The translations under genes were made by a program, and so were the position numbers. Source: Basidiobolus ranarum (taxonomy: Eukaryota). From it: a DNA stretch of 32,339 nucleotides. Below are positions 4,751 through 28,961 of this stretch, one piece after another. Below the pieces are notes generated by a model that saw only the letters and a list, made by a program, of their open reading frames with translations, did no database searches and was not told the DNA's origin. Numbering within the stretch: position 1 is the first letter of the stretch; the number at the start of each line of letters is the position of its first letter. The stretch spans positions 1 to 32,339 of the forward strand of contig JASJQH010000083.1 in NCBI GenBank assembly GCA_040143965.1, read 5' to 3'.

Positions 4751-5358
4751 ATCACTCATTTTTAACTTCACTTTGACATAACCCATTTTTGACCCATGTT
4801 TCCACTATATTCCCTGCTATATTAATAAAATTCCCTAAAACCTTACTGAATTGAAAACCTGGCCTGTGCTTCTTGTTCTTGAAATATCTTAGTTGGATAT
4901 TGCTGAAGTCATATGTTCATTCCTAAGTGTTCATTATAGTTCACGCGGTTTTATGTAACCATTCGGGACCATTTCTCACCACAGGAATATGGAACTTTGG
5001 ACCCACCTTTGGAAATTCGTGAGCATAAGTGACGATATGAGCCAAATATGGGAGAATCATGTTTAGTATAGGGGGAGTGAATGGGGGATAATCAAAGACC
5101 CAGCTAACCCTAAATTATCATTGATGCTGAATATTTACCCACAAACACCGGGTGACAACACTTGGATAAGCAAAAAAAGGACATGATTCGGAAACATAAG
5201 TGGTGGATTATATCATGAGTTGACGGAATTATGACGTTTTCAGCAAATGATTTCGGAAAGCAAGGAAATATAGGTTATCACTGGGCAAGTGATCAACACT
5301 TTTTGTATATAATGTTGGCTAGCTCCATCATGTATCACTTAAATACCAACTCTACACA

Positions 5359-10731: not shown

Positions 10732-11677
10732 AGAATTTCACTTTCGTATTCTTCAATATGGTATTCTCTTTATTACGTCTATAAAATACAAATACATTTT
10801 GGAAAGATCATTTGAGCTCTATTTTTGGTTTTCCAAGTTTTGTCTTTTTCAGTCAGTAAAATAGTAATTTCAAAGTGCCTTCGTATAGTGAAATTCGCAT
10901 TAATATGGCACTGATAATATAGAAGAGTTATATAGTCTTCATGCAAGCTTTAGTAATGATCTTTGCTATGGCAGACATGATGCAGCCTAAATTCCGGTCA
11001 TATTGTTACCATCGAGGATTCATTGTAACGACAGATAACGGTACAAATGATAGTATATTCGTGATTGGTGGCAATGATAATATATTCGTGATTAAGATCC
11101 TGGCCATACTGGCTCATACATCTATACCTAACCCTAAACTATCAAACAAATGTGAATTTTAGCTTGTGAGTCTAGAACAAGACATTAAATTTACACAGCT
11201 CTGTACTCCTTAATCAGTGACTAAGTTGGTGTCGAATTAAGGCACGGAGTATTAACACTAAAACAGCCCTAGTCCAACCTTACTTGTATTGTAGCACACC
11301 ATTTATTCTTCTTGATGCATATACCAATCAAATTGAGTTACTGGTCAATAGACTGCTTTTTAGTCACTTCGAATAAACTAAAAATATCGATGTCCAATGT
11401 AAATTGCCAAAAGAGAGGTATAAGCCCATTTCGTGATACATGTATGCTCATAGGAGTTACACTGTTCGAACTATTTCAACTAATTAAGATTTGTCTCAGT
11501 GCAATGAATTCATACAAAGTTTCAAACGTGCTGTAAGCTTGGTTCTTTCCTGTTATTATCTAAACCAGACATTCCCACTGCTCACCTATATTGAAGTGTA
11601 TTTGTACCTTACTTATCTTGACCTACTACGTGAACATTATCAACCTTTGAACTATGAGTATTTAGACTTTCCAAGCA

Positions 11678-13089
11678 ATGAAGGTAGCTATTTTAAATTG
11701 TTTCTTTATTCGTATCGGTGTCGATTCTTTCCAGAATATACTATTCAAATCAACTCGTCTTGATTATTTTCTGTAAGTTCTTTCAACGAGTACGTGACTA
11801 AGCCAACCCCGTTAAATTACTAGAAAATCAAAGTCAATTATCCACGAACGACACTAATTTTGTCTATATTGGAAGCACTAATAGTTATAGCATTGGAGGC
11901 ACTTGTCGCATACACTTATTCTAAAAATGTTGGCTTAGGCACTAATGACAATGAGTACAACTCTCTATTGGTGTATTTCATTATTTTTATCAGTTCGCAG
12001 GTATTTCAAGTAGTACTGGTATGGGATGCTGTAAGTAATCTTTTTCAATTGTAACGTGCTTCCAAGATTTTTTCGACCGATAAATGGAGTCTTCAGTTTT
12101 ACAATAACATCTAATGTATGTCTGTATTTTCTTTAGTTACGAAATGAGAACACTATCCAAGTAATTGCTTTCGTCTTATTCAATTTGTCCTGCTTATGTT
12201 ACTCTGTAATTCAGTACAATCAACTGAGTAAAATGGGAATCAATACTTCGCCAATGAGGTTATGCCAGTATCTGACCATTAGCATCGCTGCGACCATGTC
12301 GGTTTTCTTTCTTCTTTACATATGGCTGGGTTACCGCCTTTATCGGGAATTTGGCTGGCAAATATACAAACGTATTGGCGCGGACGTTCGAATGACGGGT
12401 AAATAAGAATTATTAGGAAAATGAGGAATTAGATAGGTTAATACTTACTCTTACCTTTATGCTATACCAGCTCGATATCGTACATATCAAATCTTTCTTA
12501 CCTTGGTCAAACTAGATATATTTTTTTTCCTTGGTTTTTGCGTCCAATTCTTGGTATTGGTGCTAGTTGGAAGTGACCCCGAGATTCCCATCACAATCGC
12601 TTCGCTGCCTATTATCGTTATTACATTAGTTCTGGCTGTTTATTGTATTCGACGTGAAAATCGAGTGATAACGGTGATTTTCTTGTTTGGTTTGTGCTGT
12701 GGAGCTGGCTATTTTACATTCAAACTGATACGAATGCAACAAAGACGCCATGAAGACCAATATCGAAGTGTCATCATCTTTTTGACGTTCTTTGGTATGA
12801 GTCTATTATTTTATGTTTCATTGAACTTTCTTAGTGTTTATTACTGATTATTTCTATATTCAGCTGCTCTATCGTTGGTCATGATTGCCGTCACTATCGT
12901 GATGACTATCCAATGCTACATAAACTTCGGCAAAGGCCTCAAATTCCACCGTAAGTTCAACTTTGTAATTGCTATGACTGAAAGAAACCATATTAAGCAG
13001 GGATTTTACAAAAATATTTAGTGGACACTGCTCGTACTATGACTCAGGCACGATCTCCTACCGAGCGTAATTTAAACTTAATTGAGTGA
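11678..13089 (+). CDS. UPF0658-like multi-pass (Golgi) membrane protein, ~317 aa; first exon uncertain
   Basis: Exons 11678-11683 (tentative), 11824-12030, 12137-12398, 12471-12794, 12864-12950 and 13022-13089. Motifs: DALRNENTIQVI, LYREFGWQIYKRIGAD, LVKLDIFFFLGFCVQF, RRENR, NFGKGLK. About 8 hydrophobic segments. Confidence 0.8.
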
Positions 13090-13521: not shown

Positions 13522-14666
13522 TTACAATAGGTTGTTGACCAGCGGTAAAGTAGCTGAAGACACTTCCATTGTCAAAGTATTGGCCATTTTGAGATTGTAC
13601 AGGAGTGAGTTGTTCAGACATTCTAGAGTGTCCGGAAAATGAGTGGAATCAGGACTGACTAAAGTTAGAGGTTGAATATTCGAAGATAAAGATGTTTCTG
13701 TATGCATCTTTATGTCCCTAGTAGAGATCATGTGGGGTTTTTTGGGAAGGGATGAGTTGGGGATTGGGGAAGAAGGTGAAGACATAGTAGCAATGGAGTG
13801 ACGACGATCTCTTGACCATTGATCTGAAGCACCTGCGGGCTCAGTCTGTCGGTATTCCTGATCCCACGAACGCTTGCGAGAAAGTACTTCTTCAATACAA
13901 GTGGAGTCCGATAAACCATTGATCATACGATGGCTTCCCCAAGTATCCTGAGACATACACACTCCAGATTCAATACTCTCGTTGGAAACTAAATGAAACG
14001 AGTCTACTTTAGTTGAGGAAAGTCGTTGATCGGCCAATTTTTGTGCCAACTTCTCCATCCCTTGGAGCTCATCTTGGTAGTCGGTCATATTCTTTTTATG
14101 ATAAAGACAAGTGGAATACATATCTGGCCGATAAGTGTCACAGTATTCTCCACGTTTGGGATTTTTCTGGACGGCTAAAGGAGTTGAATTGTACAGTACG
14201 TGTAGAGGATCAGGCTGTTCGAACTTTAGGTCCAACATAATAGGTGGCAATCTCAAATTACTATCTAAATCCAATGGATGTCGAAAGTGTTCTTCATCAG
14301 AATCGGAGCTGCCAGAGCGTTCATAGAAGGATGTGCATTTGGGCAGTTGTAGTTTAGACTTGATAGAACAAGCCGAGTATCGTTCGGAAAAGTCTGACCT
14401 TCTTGCCAAGTAATCTGATAGAGGTGGTAGTGAAGGCAGTTCGCTAATTTCTCTAGTTGAAAAAGGATCGCAATCTATAGGAGGGAGAGGCACGTCATGG
14501 TGAGATCTATTGAACTTCCCACCATCCAATCTTTCTATAGGAGGGAGATTGACACGAGGCGGGTCATCATCACCTTTGTAAATTACAGAGGATTGTTAAG
14601 GTGTGTTGAAAATGGGAAAAAGAAGTGATTTATCGTACCATAGCTGGAATTTCTCCAAGAGGACAT
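13522..14666 (-). CDS. Disordered Ser/Pro-rich putative regulatory protein with repeated LPxI/L motifs, ~359 aa; C-terminus may lie in an overlapping frame ending at 13415
   Basis: Exon 1 14666-14639 (MSSWRNSSYG), intron GTACGA..AAG, and exon 2 from 14573 in frame with the 335-aa ORF. TATA (CTATATAA on the minus strand) at ~14729-14736. No globular domain recognised. Confidence 0.75.
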
Positions 14667-18320: not shown

Positions 18321-19145
18321 CTAACTACTGGTCTGTGTTGCTTCTAAAAGTGCTTTCCAATATACCTCATGAACGTACTCGAAATCGAATCTTCCGCCGA
18401 CATCCTTTTCTATGTAGTCCATGTCAAACTTGGCTTCCAATAGCTCAGCTTTCTTACGATCACCAAAGTTAATCTTGTTCCTTGTAACGGGGTCGATGAA
18501 TGGACTGACAAGCTTAAAGAAACCAGAAAAATACCATGGAGTATCTATCAAATACGCAAGACCAAGACGCTCAGGATAATGTGCATGAAGAATACCGAGT
18601 AGCTCAGCCGCTTGGGAAAGTGGGGGATTTTTGGACATGGAGGCACCTTTGTAGTCAATTAGTAAGCACACTTGTTCGCCGCCAGGAGGTAACAACTGAA
18701 GGGCTCTCTCCAAGGTAAAGACAGTAAATCGCAGTTGTCTTTCATAAGTTTTTGTATTTTGTCTTCCGGGACGTAAATACAATATAATTCTTCCCTCTCT
18801 ATCAAATCCGTTAATATAACTTTTACCAGTTTCGGACTCTTCCTCGATCTCAGCAGGTGGGATCTTATGTGGTTGATAAGTATGACGCCAAGTCAAAGTA
18901 TTTGCGATTTTTTTCTGTGCGTCAGCAAGGATCCATTTTGTTGCGCGTAAGTAACGTAGAAGGCAGGCATCAGTGAGAAACGATTTATCTTCTTCAGGTA
19001 CTGGAGAAGCCGAGATTAGTTCGGGGATTTTTGTACGAAATTCGTCGAGTTGCTTTTGCTGCGACTCACTTAGGGTGGCGGAAGCAGAAAGTTGTGAAGT
19101 AGGAGGTAAAGTAAAAATAGGAGTGTTGGGAGCTGAAAGAGCCAT
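18321..19145 (-). CDS. Sec14/CRAL-TRIO lipid-transfer protein (Pdr16/Sfh3-like), 274 aa, intronless
   Basis: LTDACLLRYLRATKW..TLTWR, ESETGK.YINGFDREGR.ILYLRP, HYPERLG, PWYFSGFFKLVSPFIDPVTRNKI. Confidence 0.93.
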   Translation of the reverse strand: MALSAPNTPIFTLPPTSQLSASATLSESQQKQLDEFRTKIPELISASPVPEEDKSFLTDACLLRYLRATKWILADAQKKIANTLTWRHTYQPHKIPPAEIEEESETGKSYINGFDREGRIILYLRPGRQNTKTYERQLRFTVFTLERALQLLPPGGEQVCLLIDYKGASMSKNPPLSQAAELLGILHAHYPERLGLAYLIDTPWYFSGFFKLVSPFIDPVTRNKINFGDRKKAELLEAKFDMDYIEKDVGGRFDFEYVHEVYWKALLEATQTSS

Positions 19146-19940
19146 ATTTTCTTTTATTTGAATGAGCCAGCAACAAAGGTCTAGAGCAAAGTGTAGTTAT
19201 AGAAGGAGCAGACGCAAGTACGGAGAGGATTGCGCTAACTCTTTAACTGAAAAAAATTAGGGAAACATCGCCATATTTGTTAATTCATCTCTCGGATTTT
19301 CGCGATATTTTGACAAGACTTCGGCTAATTTGTAATTTGATTTCTAATTATATCAAAATAATGGATGTCACCAATACAAAATACATGAGAATAGCAAAGA
19401 TCGACACATGTGTATTGATTTATTGACATTCTATTTGCTTTCGATTGAGTCAATAATTACCACATCCTGTGGAGTATCAACATCTCGTCATATTCTAAAT
19501 ATATTCAGCGTTGCGCCTATATCCATTTCCGACAAAAGATCCGAAATAGATCGGAATTTCATGTTGTCACGGAATTTCTTAAACCGGTAGAGTCATGGCA
19601 ATTTGTTGAGCAAGGCATCTAGAGATCCTTGTACGAATATATATAGTATATTTGAACAATGTTCACAATACCACCAGGGGTTATCGGGCCTTGGCTCAAT
19701 ATATTAGACAAGCGTTGATAAAAAATGATCAGAGCATCGGATAGCGGAAGGTTGACCCGCGTATTGTTTAGATTATGCTAGCCAACATATACGATACAAT
19801 CTGGCTCAATAAAACGGAACAAAACAAATAAAATTGAATGTGGCAAATCATGGATGTTTAATGAATGGACTATGCATGAGTGAAGGGATGAAGTAAATGT
19901 GAGCTGGTATATACATAAATGTTCATCCGGATTCCATCCT

Positions 19941-20845
19941 TCAGCCGCGGTACAATTCCGGAATAATTTCTTGGTTCTGAATAGATTTGACCAGGATCTC
20001 CTCTGCATGTTCCGGACGAACTCTGGCATACCAAATTCCAGCTTGAATACAGAGGTGTTAAAGAATTTAGTACTCGTTAAGAATGAATCAGCTGAAGAAG
20101 TATTACCTGGATATAATATAACGTTCGCTGCATACTTATGACCACCAATATGACTCACTAAGTTTACCTCTATCTGATCTTCTAGTCCTAGGGTTTTCTT
20201 AGCTTTCTCAAAAGCTTCTTTTAAAATAGGTGCAACTATACCACATCTAGCATCACGTTCCATGTGTCCACATATAAGGATCTGTGACTTCTTGAAAGGC
20301 TCAACCTTAATCCCAACGGAATTAAAGTCGATTGGCTCATCTAGCAATACATGGTTAACCAAGCTCGATATGTTATCCTCATTAACGTTCGAGCAGAGCC
20401 AGTTATTAGGATATACTACAAGTTGCGTAGAGTCAAGGGTGCTCTCTTCTGATTTGTCAGTTATGGGTCGATCCGTATTGCTATTAATGACTCTTAAAGT
20501 AGTGGGTTGCTTTTTACGAGCCTGAAGAGTGCTTCTCGATAGTAGACTTGTTAGAGTGTTGGGGATAAATTCCACTTTGGACGGCCACTTGGAATGACCA
20601 GTGGAAACCAAAAAATGGGCTGAATATGGAGATATATTAGGTAGAGGAGATTCAGTATCAATATCTAACCCTGGAGGGTATTCTATACTTTGGCAAGAGC
20701 ATTTATCACTACAGTCGTCTTTCTTAGTTTCATAGAACTCATTGAGAAAACTCAAGGGGCGTACTGATTGTTTTCCGTAAAGTATGGAAGTATTTTTCAG
20801 TAGAGAAAGTGGGAAGTTTCCACGCACAGCTTTTTTCCAAAGCAT
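19941..20845 (-). CDS. Apd1/Aim32-family sucrase/ferredoxin-like thioredoxin-fold [2Fe-2S] protein, ~279 aa, 2 exons
   Basis: Exons 20845-20107 and 20041-19941. Splicing the 65-nt intron restores the family C-terminus GIWYARVRPEH..ELYRG*. Ligand motifs are CGHMERDARC (C-x8-C) and SHIGGHKYAANV (H-x3-H). The basic N-terminus resembles a mitochondrial presequence. Confidence 0.9.
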
Positions 20846-21059
20846 TTTTGGCCAAATATTTGCGTTTGTTGTTAGCGAACAAGATTCCAAACTATATATT
20901 TTCCCTTCAGTTCATAATTTTCGTTGATTCATTATGATTAATGAATAATACACATGGCCGTTGAACAAACTGCTCACATTACATCAGCTTACCAAACATG
21001 GAAATACCAAAAGAGAAATTTGATCAAACCGCAATATGTGATTTAGTGTAAGTGATCTT

Positions 21060-22171
21060 GAGTGTGAACCTCACGCGGCGTTAAAAGAGCCGAGTATCAG
21101 CTTCGGCGATTTACCACGGATAGGCCACAGGCAGAATTCATGCTAGATTCGATCCGGTTGGGATTCGATGAAGGAGCTCAGGTATCGCCTTTCATGAAGG
21201 TAGTTCTTGTAAGCACGGAGAATTACGCGGACATATAGTAGCTACTGGAATCACCAACCATATATGTCTGGTATGACTGAAAAAACACTGCTTAAACAGG
21301 GCTAAAAAGTAATTGAGTATTGCGGATAAGCTCTGGGTTACTGAAATGAGGCTAACTACGATCCGTCCGAATCAATGGCAAGTTGCATGTTCAGGTTTAG
21401 CCCTAACCCTAATATAGGGATGAATTTAATTAATTCTATCAACGGCCACTTACAGAGGAAACAACCACTAGTTGCGAAGGAACACGGACAATCTTGTGGC
21501 CGAATGAAGAGTTTTCATCCGGCTCGTTTTGATGCTCGCAGTTATATGTATATGCAAATGAAGGATTTCGATTGTCTTGGCTCTCATTGAGCACAACATC
21601 ATAGTTAGGGACAGATCAAAGGCTGGGGGATTTTCTTTTTCAAAAGAAATCAACCTCTATGCCAGAAGTGCGACAGTTCACTCTGTATGGGAGTGTCGTT
21701 GAAAAGAGGTTTCAGATGAGAACCTCTGGCGAAACATGAGCAAAGCTTGCACCAGAGAGTGGGTGGGGTGTAGGGGCGGAATTTGGAGGGAGAGCCAATA
21801 GTTTGGGCTAGCGAATGGTGGCAATCCTTGAAGCAATCTGGCTTAAAGATAAATAGACTCTGACCAGCAGATTGGCTCAAACAACATCCAATCTAACTGT
21901 GTAGTCGTTTCTGGAGGGATGGGAGTTTGGCTTGGTATAGATGATGGCCATAATAAGTGCCCTATATAGTTGAAGAGCATTATATGCACGATAAACAAAA
22001 GAATGTCCATCTGAAGTAAGCCATAAAGGAAATCTACAAAAATTAAATCTCACACTTGACCGACCAAGACTCCCGAATGTAGTATTGAGGAAAGCTAAGA
22101 TAACAAGCAATGAATAATACCAGCACTCTGATTAGGTAAAGGCATTTTGTATGATCCTATTTTGAGCTGCT
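21060..22171 (+). ncRNA. Long structured non-coding RNA, candidate telomerase RNA (boundaries approximate)
   Basis: No credible ORF. Dense helices with G-U pairs that form only on the + strand: 21089-94/21102-07, 21168-74/21189-95, 21200-08/21218-26, 21228-37/21261-70 and 21308-18/21330-42. Further Watson-Crick stems: 21443-49/21496-502, 21792-99/21871-78 and 21921-36/22063-74. Also CCCTAACCCTAA at 21401-21412, a candidate pseudoknot at 21621-21708, and Sm-like ATTTTG next to 5' splice sites at 22144-22177. Confidence 0.5.
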
Positions 22172-22216
22172 GTAAGTAACATCAGGATTGACACGTACTC
22201 TCTAACGGCTGTTTAG
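22172..22216 (+). other. Orphan spliceosomal intron signature at the 3' end of the candidate ncRNA
   Basis: GTAAGT (22172-77), with an alternative donor GTATGA at 22149, branch point TCTAAC (22201-06) and acceptor TTTAG (22212-16). No + strand coding exons flank it. Confidence 0.5.
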
Positions 22217-24219
22217 CAAGGATTCTATACACCAGTTACTAAGCCAATAGTATCACTACAGCCTTGAGGATGCGAGTGTCTGGTCAGGACTCAAGATGCC
22301 GCACTAGCCTTTTAACAATGCTGATCAATGTTCAACATTCGCAGCAAGCTAGGATACAGTAATATTCCTCTGATTTTTTGCTGTGGCACTTCCCGGCTTT
22401 CACTGATAATGCCTCATTAGTTATTCCATTTCCGACGACACTTCTGACAACTTTGCCCTTCAGTCATCGTTCTTTTAGACTTGCTAGATTTGATGCTAAA
22501 TTTCCATAATCTTTTCCAATAACTAGCCATCTTTTTTTACTACTGTTCTCTTGGCTCCTTCAGTACTTGCTAGATAAGTTGATTTTCGAAGGTGGTTTGT
22601 ACATGAGTTCATCTTCAAAAACTAAACGTTTCCCTCCTTTTACTCCTGTTTTGGTAGAGTCCATCTTTTCAATTTTGGTAAACAGTCTTCCTAGTATTTG
22701 TTTAACATATGATTATGAAGTGACTATGAGCTAAAGATCCTAAAACCTTTATTATTTTACCACTCATCATTACTGAGATATATAAGTGACAAAATCCCAA
22801 TTATTCACTAAATAATATAAAACTCCCACCAAGGTTCTCTGGGTCATCACTGCATTTATATCTATAGTTGACTCCTATGAGCCTTAAATATTATTGAAAT
22901 GAATGTTAGTTTGTAGATTACTGCTTAATAGAACTATCTTTCCTTATAGTCGGCTTTGTAAGCCCTTCATATATGGGGCTCCTACAAAGTTAAACAAGAG
23001 CTGATATACAAATAACACTATGTTGGATAGATTACTTTGTGAGACAACGATATTTTTCCTTTATCATCATTCTCTATCCTTTCTTTGGCCGTGAAGTCAG
23101 AACTAGGGCTAGTGGTAAGAGGCGAGTAGGATTCTATGTAAATATCTACTGATTTAGTAATTAAGAGTAATTTTTGTAGTTGATACATTTGTATATTTCT
23201 CCCCAACAATTACGTTGCTCGAAGCGCCAGAAAGTTGAGGTGCTGACTATAGATTGTTTGTGAACAATCACATTGTTGCGAGAGATATATACGCTACTAG
23301 GCTTCTCTCATTCTCGTAAAAGGCTTCAAATTCAAGCTACTACTACGAACTTTTAATACATAGCACTGAAAATAGTGATGCTCTGCTGTTGGTTTTTTCG
23401 ATTTAATTCACGATTTTTACTTGAGTTGATTTCTGATTCCTGGGGACGTTCATTTCTAAAAATAGTGAGTCGAGCTAAATAAATAAATGACATTGTCAAT
23501 GAGCTCATTCGTAGGTCCAATGAAATGGTTATAGGCATCTAAAAAAGTCAATTTAATATTGGGATTTTCCAATAACGTTAGCAATTTGCCTTATTAACGC
23601 AACCCACTGTGTAGATAGGTGCCATCAATGCACACTTTTATCTTTTCATTTATCTCGCGAGAATACCCTATTTAATACTAGATTCACGATGATATCTCAT
23701 TTGTTTTGAGCGCTTACTCAAACTTAACAGTGGACGCTATTAAGACTTGCTAATGTAGAGCTCAATTTGAAATACCTCCTGCTCTACGGAATCCGGTGTA
23801 GTATAATCGTTAGGACTGAGTGCTGGCAGTACTTTGTTTACATTCTGGATTGTTTACCGAATTATCAATTAATCTTCATGGATTTTGTTGATGTTTATTT
23901 CCTTCATTTTTTTCTACTTGGAAAATGTATTTCAGTTGGTATTTGACAGTTCTTGACTTCGCTTTGTGTCCCATCTATCCCTCTTACCCCTTCTAAACAC
24001 TAATATCTGCGGAAAAGTAAAGGTTTTCCTGCTTATTCCTAAACCGTGAGTCATTTTTATCTAACCTCTCTAAGAATATAATTTTATATTTGATATACCT
24101 CATATACTAGTTGTAAAGAGTTCTGGAATTAAACACCTATTACATCTTCATTCGAACTTGTTATTTTTCAACCCCCTTCTAAAGCAAACTACTCAGTATA
24201 CTATTCTCGGTTATCAAAT

Positions 24220-25317
24220 ATGGTTTGTGTTGTTTGTGGAAAACCTTCTCGTGCTATCGAACTCGACCATGGAAACAACCCATTCTATGTTGGAAACTAT
24301 TTTTCACCACCTAAAGTGAATTTGTGTGGGTGCCAGGACGACACTATAGACGTTGCCGTAGATAAACCTACTAGTACCCGTTTAGCTTTTCAAGCTACCA
24401 AGATAGAGAAAGAGCCCGGTGCTCACAGAGTGTCGCAAGCTGACCAGTTGGTTTCTAAGGAAGTGACAGTTAAAACTACCTCTGGTGAATACACGCTAAA
24501 GACTGCTCGTTTTGTAAATAGCTTTAAAAGCTCTCCAAATAATCCATTTGATGTTACTTCGACTGCAGCCTTACCTAATGTTAAAAAGGTGGTCACTCAG
24601 GAGAAGAAATTTGATTTGAGGTGAGCTATCTAATAGTACCACACTTACAATAATGAGTTATCCTAAATTAGCTTTCTATTGTAACTCTATTTAAACATTG
24701 TCAGCTCCGAGAAACCAAGTAGAAGGTATTTTCTTTCGAAACAATGTAAAACTATGGAAATAATGCTAATATCTCCATTTTAGTATATGGGATATTATTA
24801 AAGATGCTGATTTATCCTGTCAACCACGGTATTTGTGGGATTCAGAGGTCATGTTTAAAAAAGCTACTGTCATCGATGATCAGCTTGAAACGAAGACCGA
24901 AATTGTCGTTACAGCACCATCTGAAAGTACGTGGGTATCGTCTGACAAGTCATCTCGGGCTTCGTACGCACCCGCCATCTCTGAACCGCAAGCTACTGCT
25001 CCCATTAGAAAGCATGCATCTCAACAGCCCAAAGTTGAAGTTGTTACGACCAAAATCAGAACGACAAGTTTCGTTGGCCCTCAAATGTCACCAAATAATC
25101 CTTTCGAAATTAGCGATAAACCGTTGAGAAAAGTAAATTTAGCGGCAATTAAATTTGGAATGTGCATGTAAGTCTTCACATACGACTTCTCATTGAATCC
25201 ACTATTCTAATATATATCCCTATTTTGGTGAATAGTCGTGGTCGTAAGTATCCCGCTCGTATGGAGAATTTAATAGACGGCTCACCTCTCAAGCCTCGTC
25301 TGCTATCTTTTCAATAA
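24220..25317 (+). CDS. Hypothetical protein with three NNPF motifs and an internal duplication, ~295 aa, 4 exons
   Basis: Exons 24220-24620, 24705-24725, 24784-25167 and 25236-25317 (888 nt) join with consistent phase-2 introns. N-terminal CVVC. Probable 5'-UTR intron at 24046-24110. Confidence 0.75.
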
Positions 25318-26214: not shown

Positions 26215-27863
26215 TCAATAATCTAGTAGACCTTTCTTTTTCAAATTACGAGCTTTATCTTTTAAATTGACGGGAGTTCGTGTTGCAAAGAGCTCCGGGT
26301 GTTGGCTTTTGATATATACCCAATTAGTCCCAAATTTTTGGACACCGTCAATCAATACTTGCTCCTCTTCTGCCGTGAAAGGTCTGCGCTTGGGACATGG
26401 TGAGGCTATAGGAGAAGCTTCAGTGGTGCTTACTTTTTTATCCGGTTGAGCCGTACATCTCACTAATTGGGGCTTTGTTGTTGGCTTAGGTGTTGATCTT
26501 GAAGTGGGAAAATCCGCGCCATCCTGTGAATATTTGGTGACTGGAATATGATTAGCATGGTCAAGTTCAAAGAATACTTGAATGCATCATTAAAAACTGT
26601 TACTTATTGCAGGCTCATCGGGTGTTAAAGTTAGGTCAATCTCGATATATTTCTTTTCGGATAAACTGGCTGCATCGCTTGGACTGGCTTTACGTCGTGG
26701 TGAGAATACATCGGGATATCGTAGCTTTATGGAATCCCAATCTGTGTTGGGACCTTTCTCCTGTTCTTCGTAGGCAAGCATCGTACGAACCGCTTCATTC
26801 CAATACTTCTTTCGTTTCGCGTCATCCGGCACACTTTGAGTTCCTGAGATTGATATGTTGCCTAGAATTAAATCATTCCCTTAGTTTAGAATCAAAAGAA
26901 TTCGAGGTGATTCTGTTGACTCAACTTACCAGAGATTACTGTGCTTCTACTATTGCCGGATAATTGCCCAGACGATACGACTTGATGCACAACTCCTTTA
27001 AAAGTGGAGCTTGACTTAATATTTAACTTATTCTGGGGAATAATCAATCCTGGTGGGGGTTTCGGTGTGTTTTCATCAAGTCTATTGTCTAAATTTGAGG
27101 TAGATTCAGTAGTACGAGGAAGTAAACTCGAGTAATCTTTATCATGCACTTGTTTAGGAGGTTCAGATGCACCAATTTTTTTGTGGTTCCAGTATTTATG
27201 TAGGAAAGTTTGATCTTTGGGTAAGTTTTGCTTCTCTATTTTCCGCAAAGCTGCGCGCTCTGCATTTTCGCGTTTAGTTTCCTTATGATGGCAAGGCACA
27301 CATAATGTACGATAGTTATCCAAGGAGCATGCCCCGCCCCCTTTATACACACCTATGATATGTGCCGCCTCCCAGAACATACCGGGAGTGAAATGTTGAG
27401 TGAAATCTGAAAGAGGTTTTTTAACTTTAAGTCTCCATTTATCATCTAGACCACCAAAATAGCGCAGACGTATTTCCAAGTTGCTGCAACTTGCAGCCCC
27501 CTCAAAAATCCCGTGTGCGTTTATCCCACATTCCATACATATTCCTTTGTCGCGTTCAAAGAGTTTTAAACGAACATAACAAGGTTGTGTTTGCAGTTTG
27601 AAATTGTGAATGCAAACAGGGTTGCAGAAAGTACGGTATTCGTTATTAGTTTCTAAGATATTAAAAGGGAATTGGTGGTTTAGAAAGTCAGTTGGTTCAC
27701 GTCTTTTCAGAGTAAAATTCTAACCTTTTTGACAATATCGACATAATACAAAACCTCTCGGTCCTCTAGCTAGCTTATCGTCGATTATCCTATTTTCTGA
27801 ATCTTTTTTTACCCTCCCTCGATCCGCTCGCCAGCGGGAGTTTTTACTTACGGTAGTCGTCAT
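26215..27863 (-). CDS. ZRANB3-type HNH endonuclease fused to C-terminal TRF/telobox-type Myb domain(s), ~481 aa, 4 exons
   Basis: Exons 27863-27725, 27652-26930, 26861-26604 and 26540-26215, all phase-1 GT..AG, 1446 nt. N-terminal half: CRYC..RTFCNPVC..LFERDKGICMECG..WEAAHIIGVYKGGGACSLDNYRTLCVPCH. C-terminus: RRPFTAEEEQVLIDGVQKFGTNWVYIK..RTPVNLKDKARNL. Confidence 0.85.
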
Positions 27864-28961
27864 CTTCCAAGGAAACGCGAAAGTTTAACAAATTTACATG
27901 ATATTCAAACTGTGATTCTCACACCAATATTAAATGTGTTATCATAAACTAACAATTTAATTGTTTTGTACCTTAGGACGCCAATAACACTGAAAATGAC
28001 ATGTCACAGTGGATCAATAAATCCAGGGATACGATGATCAATTGTTGCAAAAAAAAAATTCACGAATTTCACCAACCAATGTGATGATCCATCGGTCAGA
28101 CAAAGACACAAAGAAGGAATGAAGCTAAGCAAATGTGACTTCCTTATCCGCACATTCATTTGATGCATCTACTTGACAAAAGCAATTAATCTATGTGGGG
28201 ACTGGAGATGAATCGAAGCAGAGCCATACACTCAGCAATTGGTGGTTGAAGGAACGTGTTTCCTACACCTGAATCATGCAGCTCGACTTCAACTTGATCA
28301 GATATACTTGCTGTTCTAGTGATAGGCGATATGCTTTTCGATAGATTATGACTTGGTGGGATGTTGGGCGAGGCTTATTGTTGGATCTATTACCGATACT
28401 TCCTTCGTTACCTTGAAGCGGTAGAGTTACCGATATTGACGCGGAATTCAATACAACTCACGCATCAAAAGCTCCCGATTTTAAATTGCCTACAGTCAAC
28501 TTTCCATGCCAAAAACCTGAGCTCCTTATACACTTTCTTGCTAATATATAAGGTTGAGTCATGGATACCGTAGGATCCCCCAATTATGGAGGGTTTGCCA
28601 TTCTCAAGGTGATCGGATTTGCTATGGCTTAAAGCTTAGGTCATTCCTGATTTGCATCAGCTTAGATGGCTGACACGCTGGTGGCTATCGATCCTCGATG
28701 ACATGCTAGTCTTTAGTGTGTTGATAGGAGCGCTTAATGCTCCTGCATATGTCTTACGAGTGAAATCAAATATATACATTCTGAGAAATAGTAGTAGCTT
28801 CGATATTCCCGTTGATGGTGAAATCAAGCGATATTGCAATTTATTTGAGAAAAAGGCCTCAACAAAATTATCTTGGGTTAATTATCAAGGTGTAAATATG
28901 CTAATGCTATAAAATACGATATGTGAGACAACCTCTATGTTGAATGGAGACTACAGGATTT

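Follow-up and report, generated by a model that had tools for sequence, protein, structure and literature searches.

A candidate telomere-like promoter element, possibly with a spliced non-coding transcript, in the spacer upstream of an Apd1-like gene of Basidiobolus

The window is the whole 32,339-nt stretch of Basidiobolus ranarum DNA analysed here (the whole of contig JASJQH010000083.1), and the region of interest, 21060-22216, lies in the spacer upstream of a minus-strand Suc_Fer-like (Apd1/Aim32-type) gene, from which it is divergent, as described in an earlier sequence-only reading that proposed a telomerase RNA gene at this position. The first in-frame ATG of the Apd1-like gene is at 20845, and the distance from there to the telomere-like 12-mer at 21401 is 556 bp. 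The same reading called the region ORF-free; it is indeed ORF-poor, with a longest stop-to-stop frame of 84 codons, but the spacer is wider than had been described (~20,900-24,130), and on its far side the first ORF of at least 80 codons begins at 24074 (plus strand). The suggestion that the DNA comes from an early-diverging fungus is borne out by the relatives of a CRAL-TRIO protein encoded at 18321-19145 (minus strand), the nearest named one being from Basidiobolus meristosporus (78% identity over 100% of the length), followed by chytrid and zoopagomycete proteins at 39-48% identity. A tRNA scan of the whole window gave no genes. The features referred to below are as follows.

5104-5113, plus strand: second telomere-like site, CTAACCCTAA, followed by ATTATCA.
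11127-11137, plus strand: third telomere-like site, CCTAACCCTAA, followed by ACTATCA, upstream of a spliced plus-strand gene.
19778-20890, minus strand: Suc_Fer-like (Apd1/Aim32-type) gene (Pfam PF06999, E 1e-35).
~21000-22450, no strand assigned: GC-elevated island (GC 0.41-0.48), purine-rich on the plus strand, with no coding signal.
21401-21412, plus strand: CCCTAACCCTAA, two complements of TTAGGG, proposed as template or as double telomere-like cis element (read directly).
21407-21419, no strand assigned: palindrome CCCTA-ATA-TAGGG, in which the second repeat unit faces an inverted TAGGG (read directly).
21604-21610, plus strand: GTTAGGG, an oppositely oriented telomere-like unit, 192 nt beyond the 12-mer (read directly).
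21785-21885, plus strand: sub-domain with a modest folding signal, containing UAGU-UUGG-GCUA at 21799-21810 (z -2.0, 3 of 200 shuffles as good).
22159-22164, plus strand: Sm-like AUUUUG (ATTTTG), 7 nt upstream of a 5' splice site.
22172-22216, plus strand: intron-like element of 45 nt, GTAAGT...CTCTAAC...TTTAG.
26218-26586, minus strand: C-terminal Myb domain, nearest to the Myb domains with which TRF2, TRF1, yeast TBF1 and zebrafish Terfa bind telomeric repeats (E 9e-06 to 1e-3).

To the right of the GC-elevated island the spacer falls to a GC content of 0.30-0.36. The CpG observed/expected ratio is uneven across the island (~1.05 at 20801-21400 and 0.38 at 21601-22200, against a window mean of 0.75), and it is also high directly upstream of the CRAL-TRIO gene (19201-19800) and of an HNH-domain gene (27601-28000). 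When calculated over 400-nt windows, the ratio reaches 1.05-1.43 in four zones (19201-19800, 20801-21400, 23201-23800 and 27601-28000), at least three of which sit directly upstream of gene starts, and is lowest (0.19-0.5) in 21600-23200; CpG depletion outside the promoter zones of the window is suggested. The most G-skewed and CpG-poor part of the island, at 21760-21790 on the plus strand, reads GGGTGGGGTGTAGGGGCGG...GGAGGG and holds four tracts of three to four G, a possible G-quadruplex former. Beyond the spacer, the plus-strand frames 24220-24624 and 24833-25171 are likely to be separated by an intron, another intron lies at 25168-25235, and the protein that these two frames encode has repeated NNPF/NPF motifs and no Pfam match.

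The stretch is non-coding. Ten ORFs of the region (eight spacer ORFs, the next plus-strand ORF and the naive Apd1-like ORF) had no exact counterpart on record, and a Pfam search of 10 ORFs of the region returned no match at E ≤ 1. For the 81-codon plus-strand frame and the 80-codon minus-strand frame there were no homologues among 5.8 billion proteins; the 84-codon minus-strand frame gave two weak matches (E 1e-5 and 1.5e-4) in an exhaustive search, both to internally repeated proteins aligned over at most 25 residues, which we judged to be due to chance. Most spacer frames had codon-usage scores lower than those of 17 real coding segments from the window, and 2 of the 13 scored frames, 21442-21615 (minus) and 22510-22731 (plus), fell inside the range of the genes. 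With candidate introns taken into account, the plus strand offers no spliced frame of at least 90 codons, and the best spliced ORF, of 100 aa, is on the minus strand. A protein-coding reading was rejected on the Pfam, homologue, exact look-up, codon-score and spliced-ORF tests, all of which were negative.

The two complements of TTAGGG that had been read as a template are present at 21401-21412, as is the GTTAGGG at 21604-21610 that had been noted as a possible pairing partner. The 12-mer occurs in a single exact copy in the window, a word rarely expected by chance (0.015 copies per window under a first-order Markov model), and it is one of three telomere-like sites of at least 10 nt on the contig. 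Shorter forms of the motif recur: the 9-mer TAACCCTAA is found in three copies in 32 kb, all on the plus strand (expected 0.43, with 1 of 100 dinucleotide shuffles reaching three), and 10-mers in telomere phase are found at six positions in three loci (expected 0.27). The sites at 5104 and 11127 have more in common than the repeat itself, since the 17-nt CTAACCCTAAAyTATCA is found at both (5104-5120 and 11127-11144) with one mismatch between them, which suggests that these two sites form a composite cis element. Site 5104 appears to lie between two gene 3' ends. Site 11127 is followed after 646 nt by the first intron of a real plus-strand gene (introns at 11773-11884 and 12031-12136); a telomere-like motif with an intron ~700 nt downstream is thus found here as well as at 21401, and the pattern arises without any need for telomerase. 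There are no telomere repeats at the contig ends. A metagenome scan with a 19-nt stretch gave four loci, for which blastn showed that the telomere-like motif alone is common to them and the window; when the Apd1-like protein was used for such a scan, 596 pattern stretches matched and not one was confirmed as a relative.

At the 3' end of the region, the Sm-like site and the signals of the intron that had been described there are both in place. The bare AT(4-6)G motif has little meaning alone, with 33 copies on the plus strand of the window and 31 on the minus strand. The composite GT[AG][AT]GT...CT[AG]A[CT]...YAG is more selective, with 11 matches on both strands of the window, eight of them on the plus strand, and most of these eight are at ORF ends of real plus-strand genes (941, 12031, 25168 and others), so the composite marks real introns fairly well in this organism. 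At least one match is a false positive, that at 19001-19069, inside a single-exon CRAL-TRIO CDS that was confirmed at 100% identity, and the match at 13605-13668 is antisense to a 335-aa ORF. The element at 22172-22216 is one of the 11 and, at 45 nt, shorter than the other such introns (57-124 nt). Only two intron composites on the two strands of the window have an AU4-6G motif in the 20 nt before them, and the AUUUUG at 22159 is one of these two cases. No frame flanking the element runs on for more than 16 codons; the intron, if real, belongs to a non-coding transcript.

In fission-yeast telomerase RNAs (TERs) the 5' splice site is reported to overlap the Sm site or to lie 14-27 nt beyond it, and the published Sm-to-5' splice site spacings range from a 1-nt overlap to 27 nt (PMC4299874). 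The same source describes three ways in which splicing is held after the first step: a perfect branch site set far from the 3' splice site, a 5' splice site that reads GUCAGU, and one that reads AUAAGU (PMC4299874). The intron-like element at 22172 has a canonical GUAAGU 5' splice site and a branch-to-3' splice site distance of ~11 nt, and none of these three published second-step blocking features was found in it.

A long series of helices had been taken as a sign of a structured plus-strand RNA, and their G-U pairs as favouring that strand. We compared folding energies with those of dinucleotide shuffles on both strands (40 shuffles for 200-nt windows, 20 for 991 nt and 200 for sub-domains), and there is no excess of structure over the stretch. 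Among 17 overlapping 200-nt windows per strand the lowest z was -1.74 (plus) and -1.48 (minus), and over 991 nt (21200-22190) z was -1.03 on the plus strand, with 2 of 20 shuffles as good, and -1.92 on the minus strand, with 1 of 20. In absolute terms the 1157 nt do fold better on the plus strand (-324.5 vs. -290.7 kcal/mol, a gap of 34 kcal/mol); this advantage is an effect of composition, because the plus-strand shuffles fold better by as much (mean energies for the 991-nt piece of -259.0 vs. -225.3 kcal/mol, a gap of ~34). The helices are thus no evidence of a structured RNA, and the G-U argument for the plus strand falls with the composition effect and with the lower z of the minus strand over the 991 nt.

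Among five sub-domains, 21785-21885 alone reached z -2.0. The template region (21355-21470) has z -0.09, with no stable helix abutting the 5' side of the template; 21921-22070, which is most of the second proposed 3' stem (21921-22074), has z -0.41, and the Sm/intron region z +0.72. The U-rich and A-rich tracts of the proposed core are present at 21631-21652, where they pair as one local hairpin (z of the region -1.13). The helix TCCGTCC/GGGCGGA (21362-21368 with 21774-21780), which had been put forward as enclosing template and core, does have seven complementary bases, one of them a G-U pair, but helices of this size are expected by chance in a stretch this long. The CCCTA-ATA-TAGGG palindrome forms a 5-bp hairpin in all plus-strand folds and pairs the 3' half of the template.

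Rfam gave no match at gathering score in the whole window. At E ≤ 10, the interval 20800-22700 gave three junk matches and none to a telomerase family; the telomerase RNA families of Rfam are lineage-restricted, and this absence is weak evidence. A strict scan for P6.1 (4-bp stem with a 5-nt NUNGN loop) found none in 21000-22400; across the whole window such hairpins number 37 (plus) and 22 (minus), and they occur by chance. There were no candidates for a P5/P6/P6.1 three-way junction in 21000-22400. With loops of 4-6 nt allowed, six overlapping matches appeared, for instance UAGU-UUGG-GCUA at 21799-21810, without an adjacent P6; its loop resembles the vertebrate P6.1 loop. A short Pol III-type telomerase RNA ending at the T-run 21633-21643 was also considered from the sequence and dropped, as there is no TATA-like element ~30 nt upstream of the template.

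Conservation of the P6.1 element, as defined above, is reported for groups as far apart as vertebrates, Pezizomycotina and fission yeast (PMC3592445), and the element is reported to be present in the U. maydis TER, for which the template 9-mer is given as TAACCCTAA and for whose genome 782 template-like loci are reported (PMC9564094). Mucor, another early-diverging fungus, is reported to have the telomere repeat TTAGGG (PMC11258239). The literature that our search returned, as far as it was available, held no report on Basidiobolus telomeres and no telomerase RNA described outside Dikarya.

The 12-mer is placed at the distal edge of a CpG-rich zone; the zone is like the other promoter zones of the window and would itself have promoter function. 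Plant teloboxes are comparable telomere-like promoter elements. The explanation that we prefer, at a confidence that we put no higher than even, is that the spacer upstream of the Apd1-like gene holds a telomere-like promoter element and possibly also gives rise to an unannotated spliced non-coding transcript. CCCTAACCCTAA would most likely be a binding site for a Myb factor that recognises TTAGGG, like Tbf1, Teb1 and Tay1, and probably does not serve as an RNA template. Downstream of it, the GC-rich kilobase ends in a good intron and may for that reason be transcribed on the plus strand into a spliced non-coding RNA that is not annotated; nothing links this possible RNA to telomerase.

Sites of such factors are described as clustered TTAGGG units in any orientation for S. 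cerevisiae Tbf1, and as a required TTAGGG/CCCTAA palindrome, TTAGGGN6CCCTAA, for C. albicans Tbf1 (PMC2834713), while S. pombe Teb1 is reported to need two TTAGGG units and to act at promoters (PMC12449055). A Myb site in this sense would be expected to have at least two clustered TTAGGG units and to recur above chance at non-coding sites. At 21401 two units stand in tandem, with an abutting inverted TAGGG and the GTTAGGG 192 nt off, and the motif does recur above chance at non-coding sites within the one 32-kb window. The frame of the TRF/TBF1-like Myb domain probably continues through 26593-26880 and 26895-27719 (minus strand), and an HNH endonuclease motif (PF01844) is present in the adjacent same-strand frames upstream of the domain.

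The recurrence, the inverted TAGGG, the clustered units, the CpG zone and the TRF/TBF1-like Myb domain within the window speak for a cis element, as does the high number of template-like loci in U. maydis (782). Against a cis element, 556 bp from the 12-mer to the Apd1-like ATG is far for a compact fungal promoter, the recurrence is that of three sites in one window, and the palindrome has the C strand first with a 1-3 nt spacer, which is not the layout published for C. albicans. A cis element also leaves two things unexplained: the ~1.4 kb of GC-rich surroundings of the motif, and the rare composite of Sm-like site and intron 750 nt downstream on the same strand.

A telomerase RNA gene, which we consider quite unlikely, would be a ~1.1 kb plus-strand Pol II transcript from ~21050 to ~22165 with its template within CCCUAACCCUAA, and its 3' end would be formed through the Sm-like site and the spliceosome at 22172, as in fission yeasts and filamentous ascomycetes. 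The GC-rich non-coding island and the Sm-like/intron composite substantially raise the odds of a telomerase RNA: all tests found the stretch to be non-coding, its GC-rich composition stands out from AT-rich flanks, and the best point in its favour is the 3' signals, with the AUUUUG 7 nt before a GTAAGT...CTAAC...YAG intron. The length and the order of elements are also like those of fungal TERs, with the template ~350 nt from the presumed 5' end; the 12 nt are the exact complement of two TTAGGG units, TTAGGG being the repeat reported for Mucor (PMC11258239), and the presence of a TRF-like Myb gene points to recognition of TTAGGG by this organism. Set against this, the absent P6.1, the absent structure signal and the inverted flank lower the odds. 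Neither a strict P6.1 nor a P5/P6/P6.1 junction was found in 21000-22400, the excess of folding is missing and z is lower on the minus strand, the U/A tracts are predicted to form a plain hairpin rather than a pseudoknot, and every fold has half of the template in a helix with the inverted TAGGG next to it. Rfam offers no family at gathering score and no telomerase family at E ≤ 10, and the intron, with its canonical GUAAGU and short branch-to-3' splice site distance, has none of the three second-step blocks. The template-like motif occurs three times on the contig; with 782 such loci in U. maydis and three here, the template-like word alone is weak evidence.

The rare 3' composite and the island could instead belong to a plus-strand transcript that is unannotated and unrelated to telomerase, either a spliced long non-coding RNA or a long untranslated leader, a view that we hold to be fairly unlikely. 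The telomere-like motif would then be incidental or promoter-proximal, and such a transcript is compatible with a cis element at 21401. The intron-like element matches the quality of the real introns of neighbouring genes, and the island is GC- and purine-rich with no coding signal; yet the intron pattern has at least one false positive (19001-19069) and a match antisense to the 335-aa ORF (13605-13668), and the next plus-strand coding ORF is ~2 kb away. The genome is probably large, at tens of Mb, the size known for the nearest named relative. In a large genome, tens of exact 12-mers are expected from composition at 0.015 per 32 kb, and the motif could be due to chance or be a short interstitial telomeric sequence without function, placed in ordinary intergenic DNA or in the remains of a decayed gene, for which the 84-codon minus-strand frame, with just its two weak repeat-protein matches, might be adduced. 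We consider this improbable: three telomere-like sites on one contig are not readily had by chance, and a protein remnant was not detected by the Pfam or homologue searches.

In the unlikely event that the region is a true TER gene, no earlier TER would come from a fungal lineage other than Dikarya, and this one would belong to a Basidiobolus-like zoopagomycete. Its template would span two repeats in 12 nt, its P6.1 would be divergent or missing, and behind its Sm site there would be an intron that is canonical throughout. Intron-coupled formation of the TER 3' end would then date to or before the base of the fungi, and the RNA would show whether the vertebrate-like core (pseudoknot, P6/P6.1) and such a 3' end date to the fungal ancestor. 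A promoter element, which we hold to be more likely than a TER, would be an ordinary result with a practical warning: the double CCCTAA is too common in this lineage to mark a TER gene, so that hunts for TERs need RNA or synteny evidence.

Compared with the Pol II TERs of fungi (S. pombe TER1, N. crassa TER, the Aspergillus TERs and U. maydis TER), the stretch is of the same ~1.1 kb size class and has an Sm-like site that closely precedes an intron, and its template-like CCCUAACCCUAA contains the 9-nt UAACCCUAA reported for U. maydis (PMC9564094). It differs from them in having no strict P6.1, three-way junction, supported pseudoknot or template boundary helix, in its canonical intron without a second-step block, in the lack of an Rfam match, and in a template-like motif that is not unique. 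From the promoter elements of Tbf1, Teb1 and Tay1 it differs in that the nearest ATG is 556 bp away and, with respect to the C. albicans Tbf1 site, in that the spacing and orientation of its palindrome depart from TTAGGGN6CCCTAA (PMC2834713). With those same elements it has in common two adjacent TTAGGG units, both orientations clustered together, an intergenic position upstream of a gene, and the recurrence of the motif at other non-coding sites of the contig.
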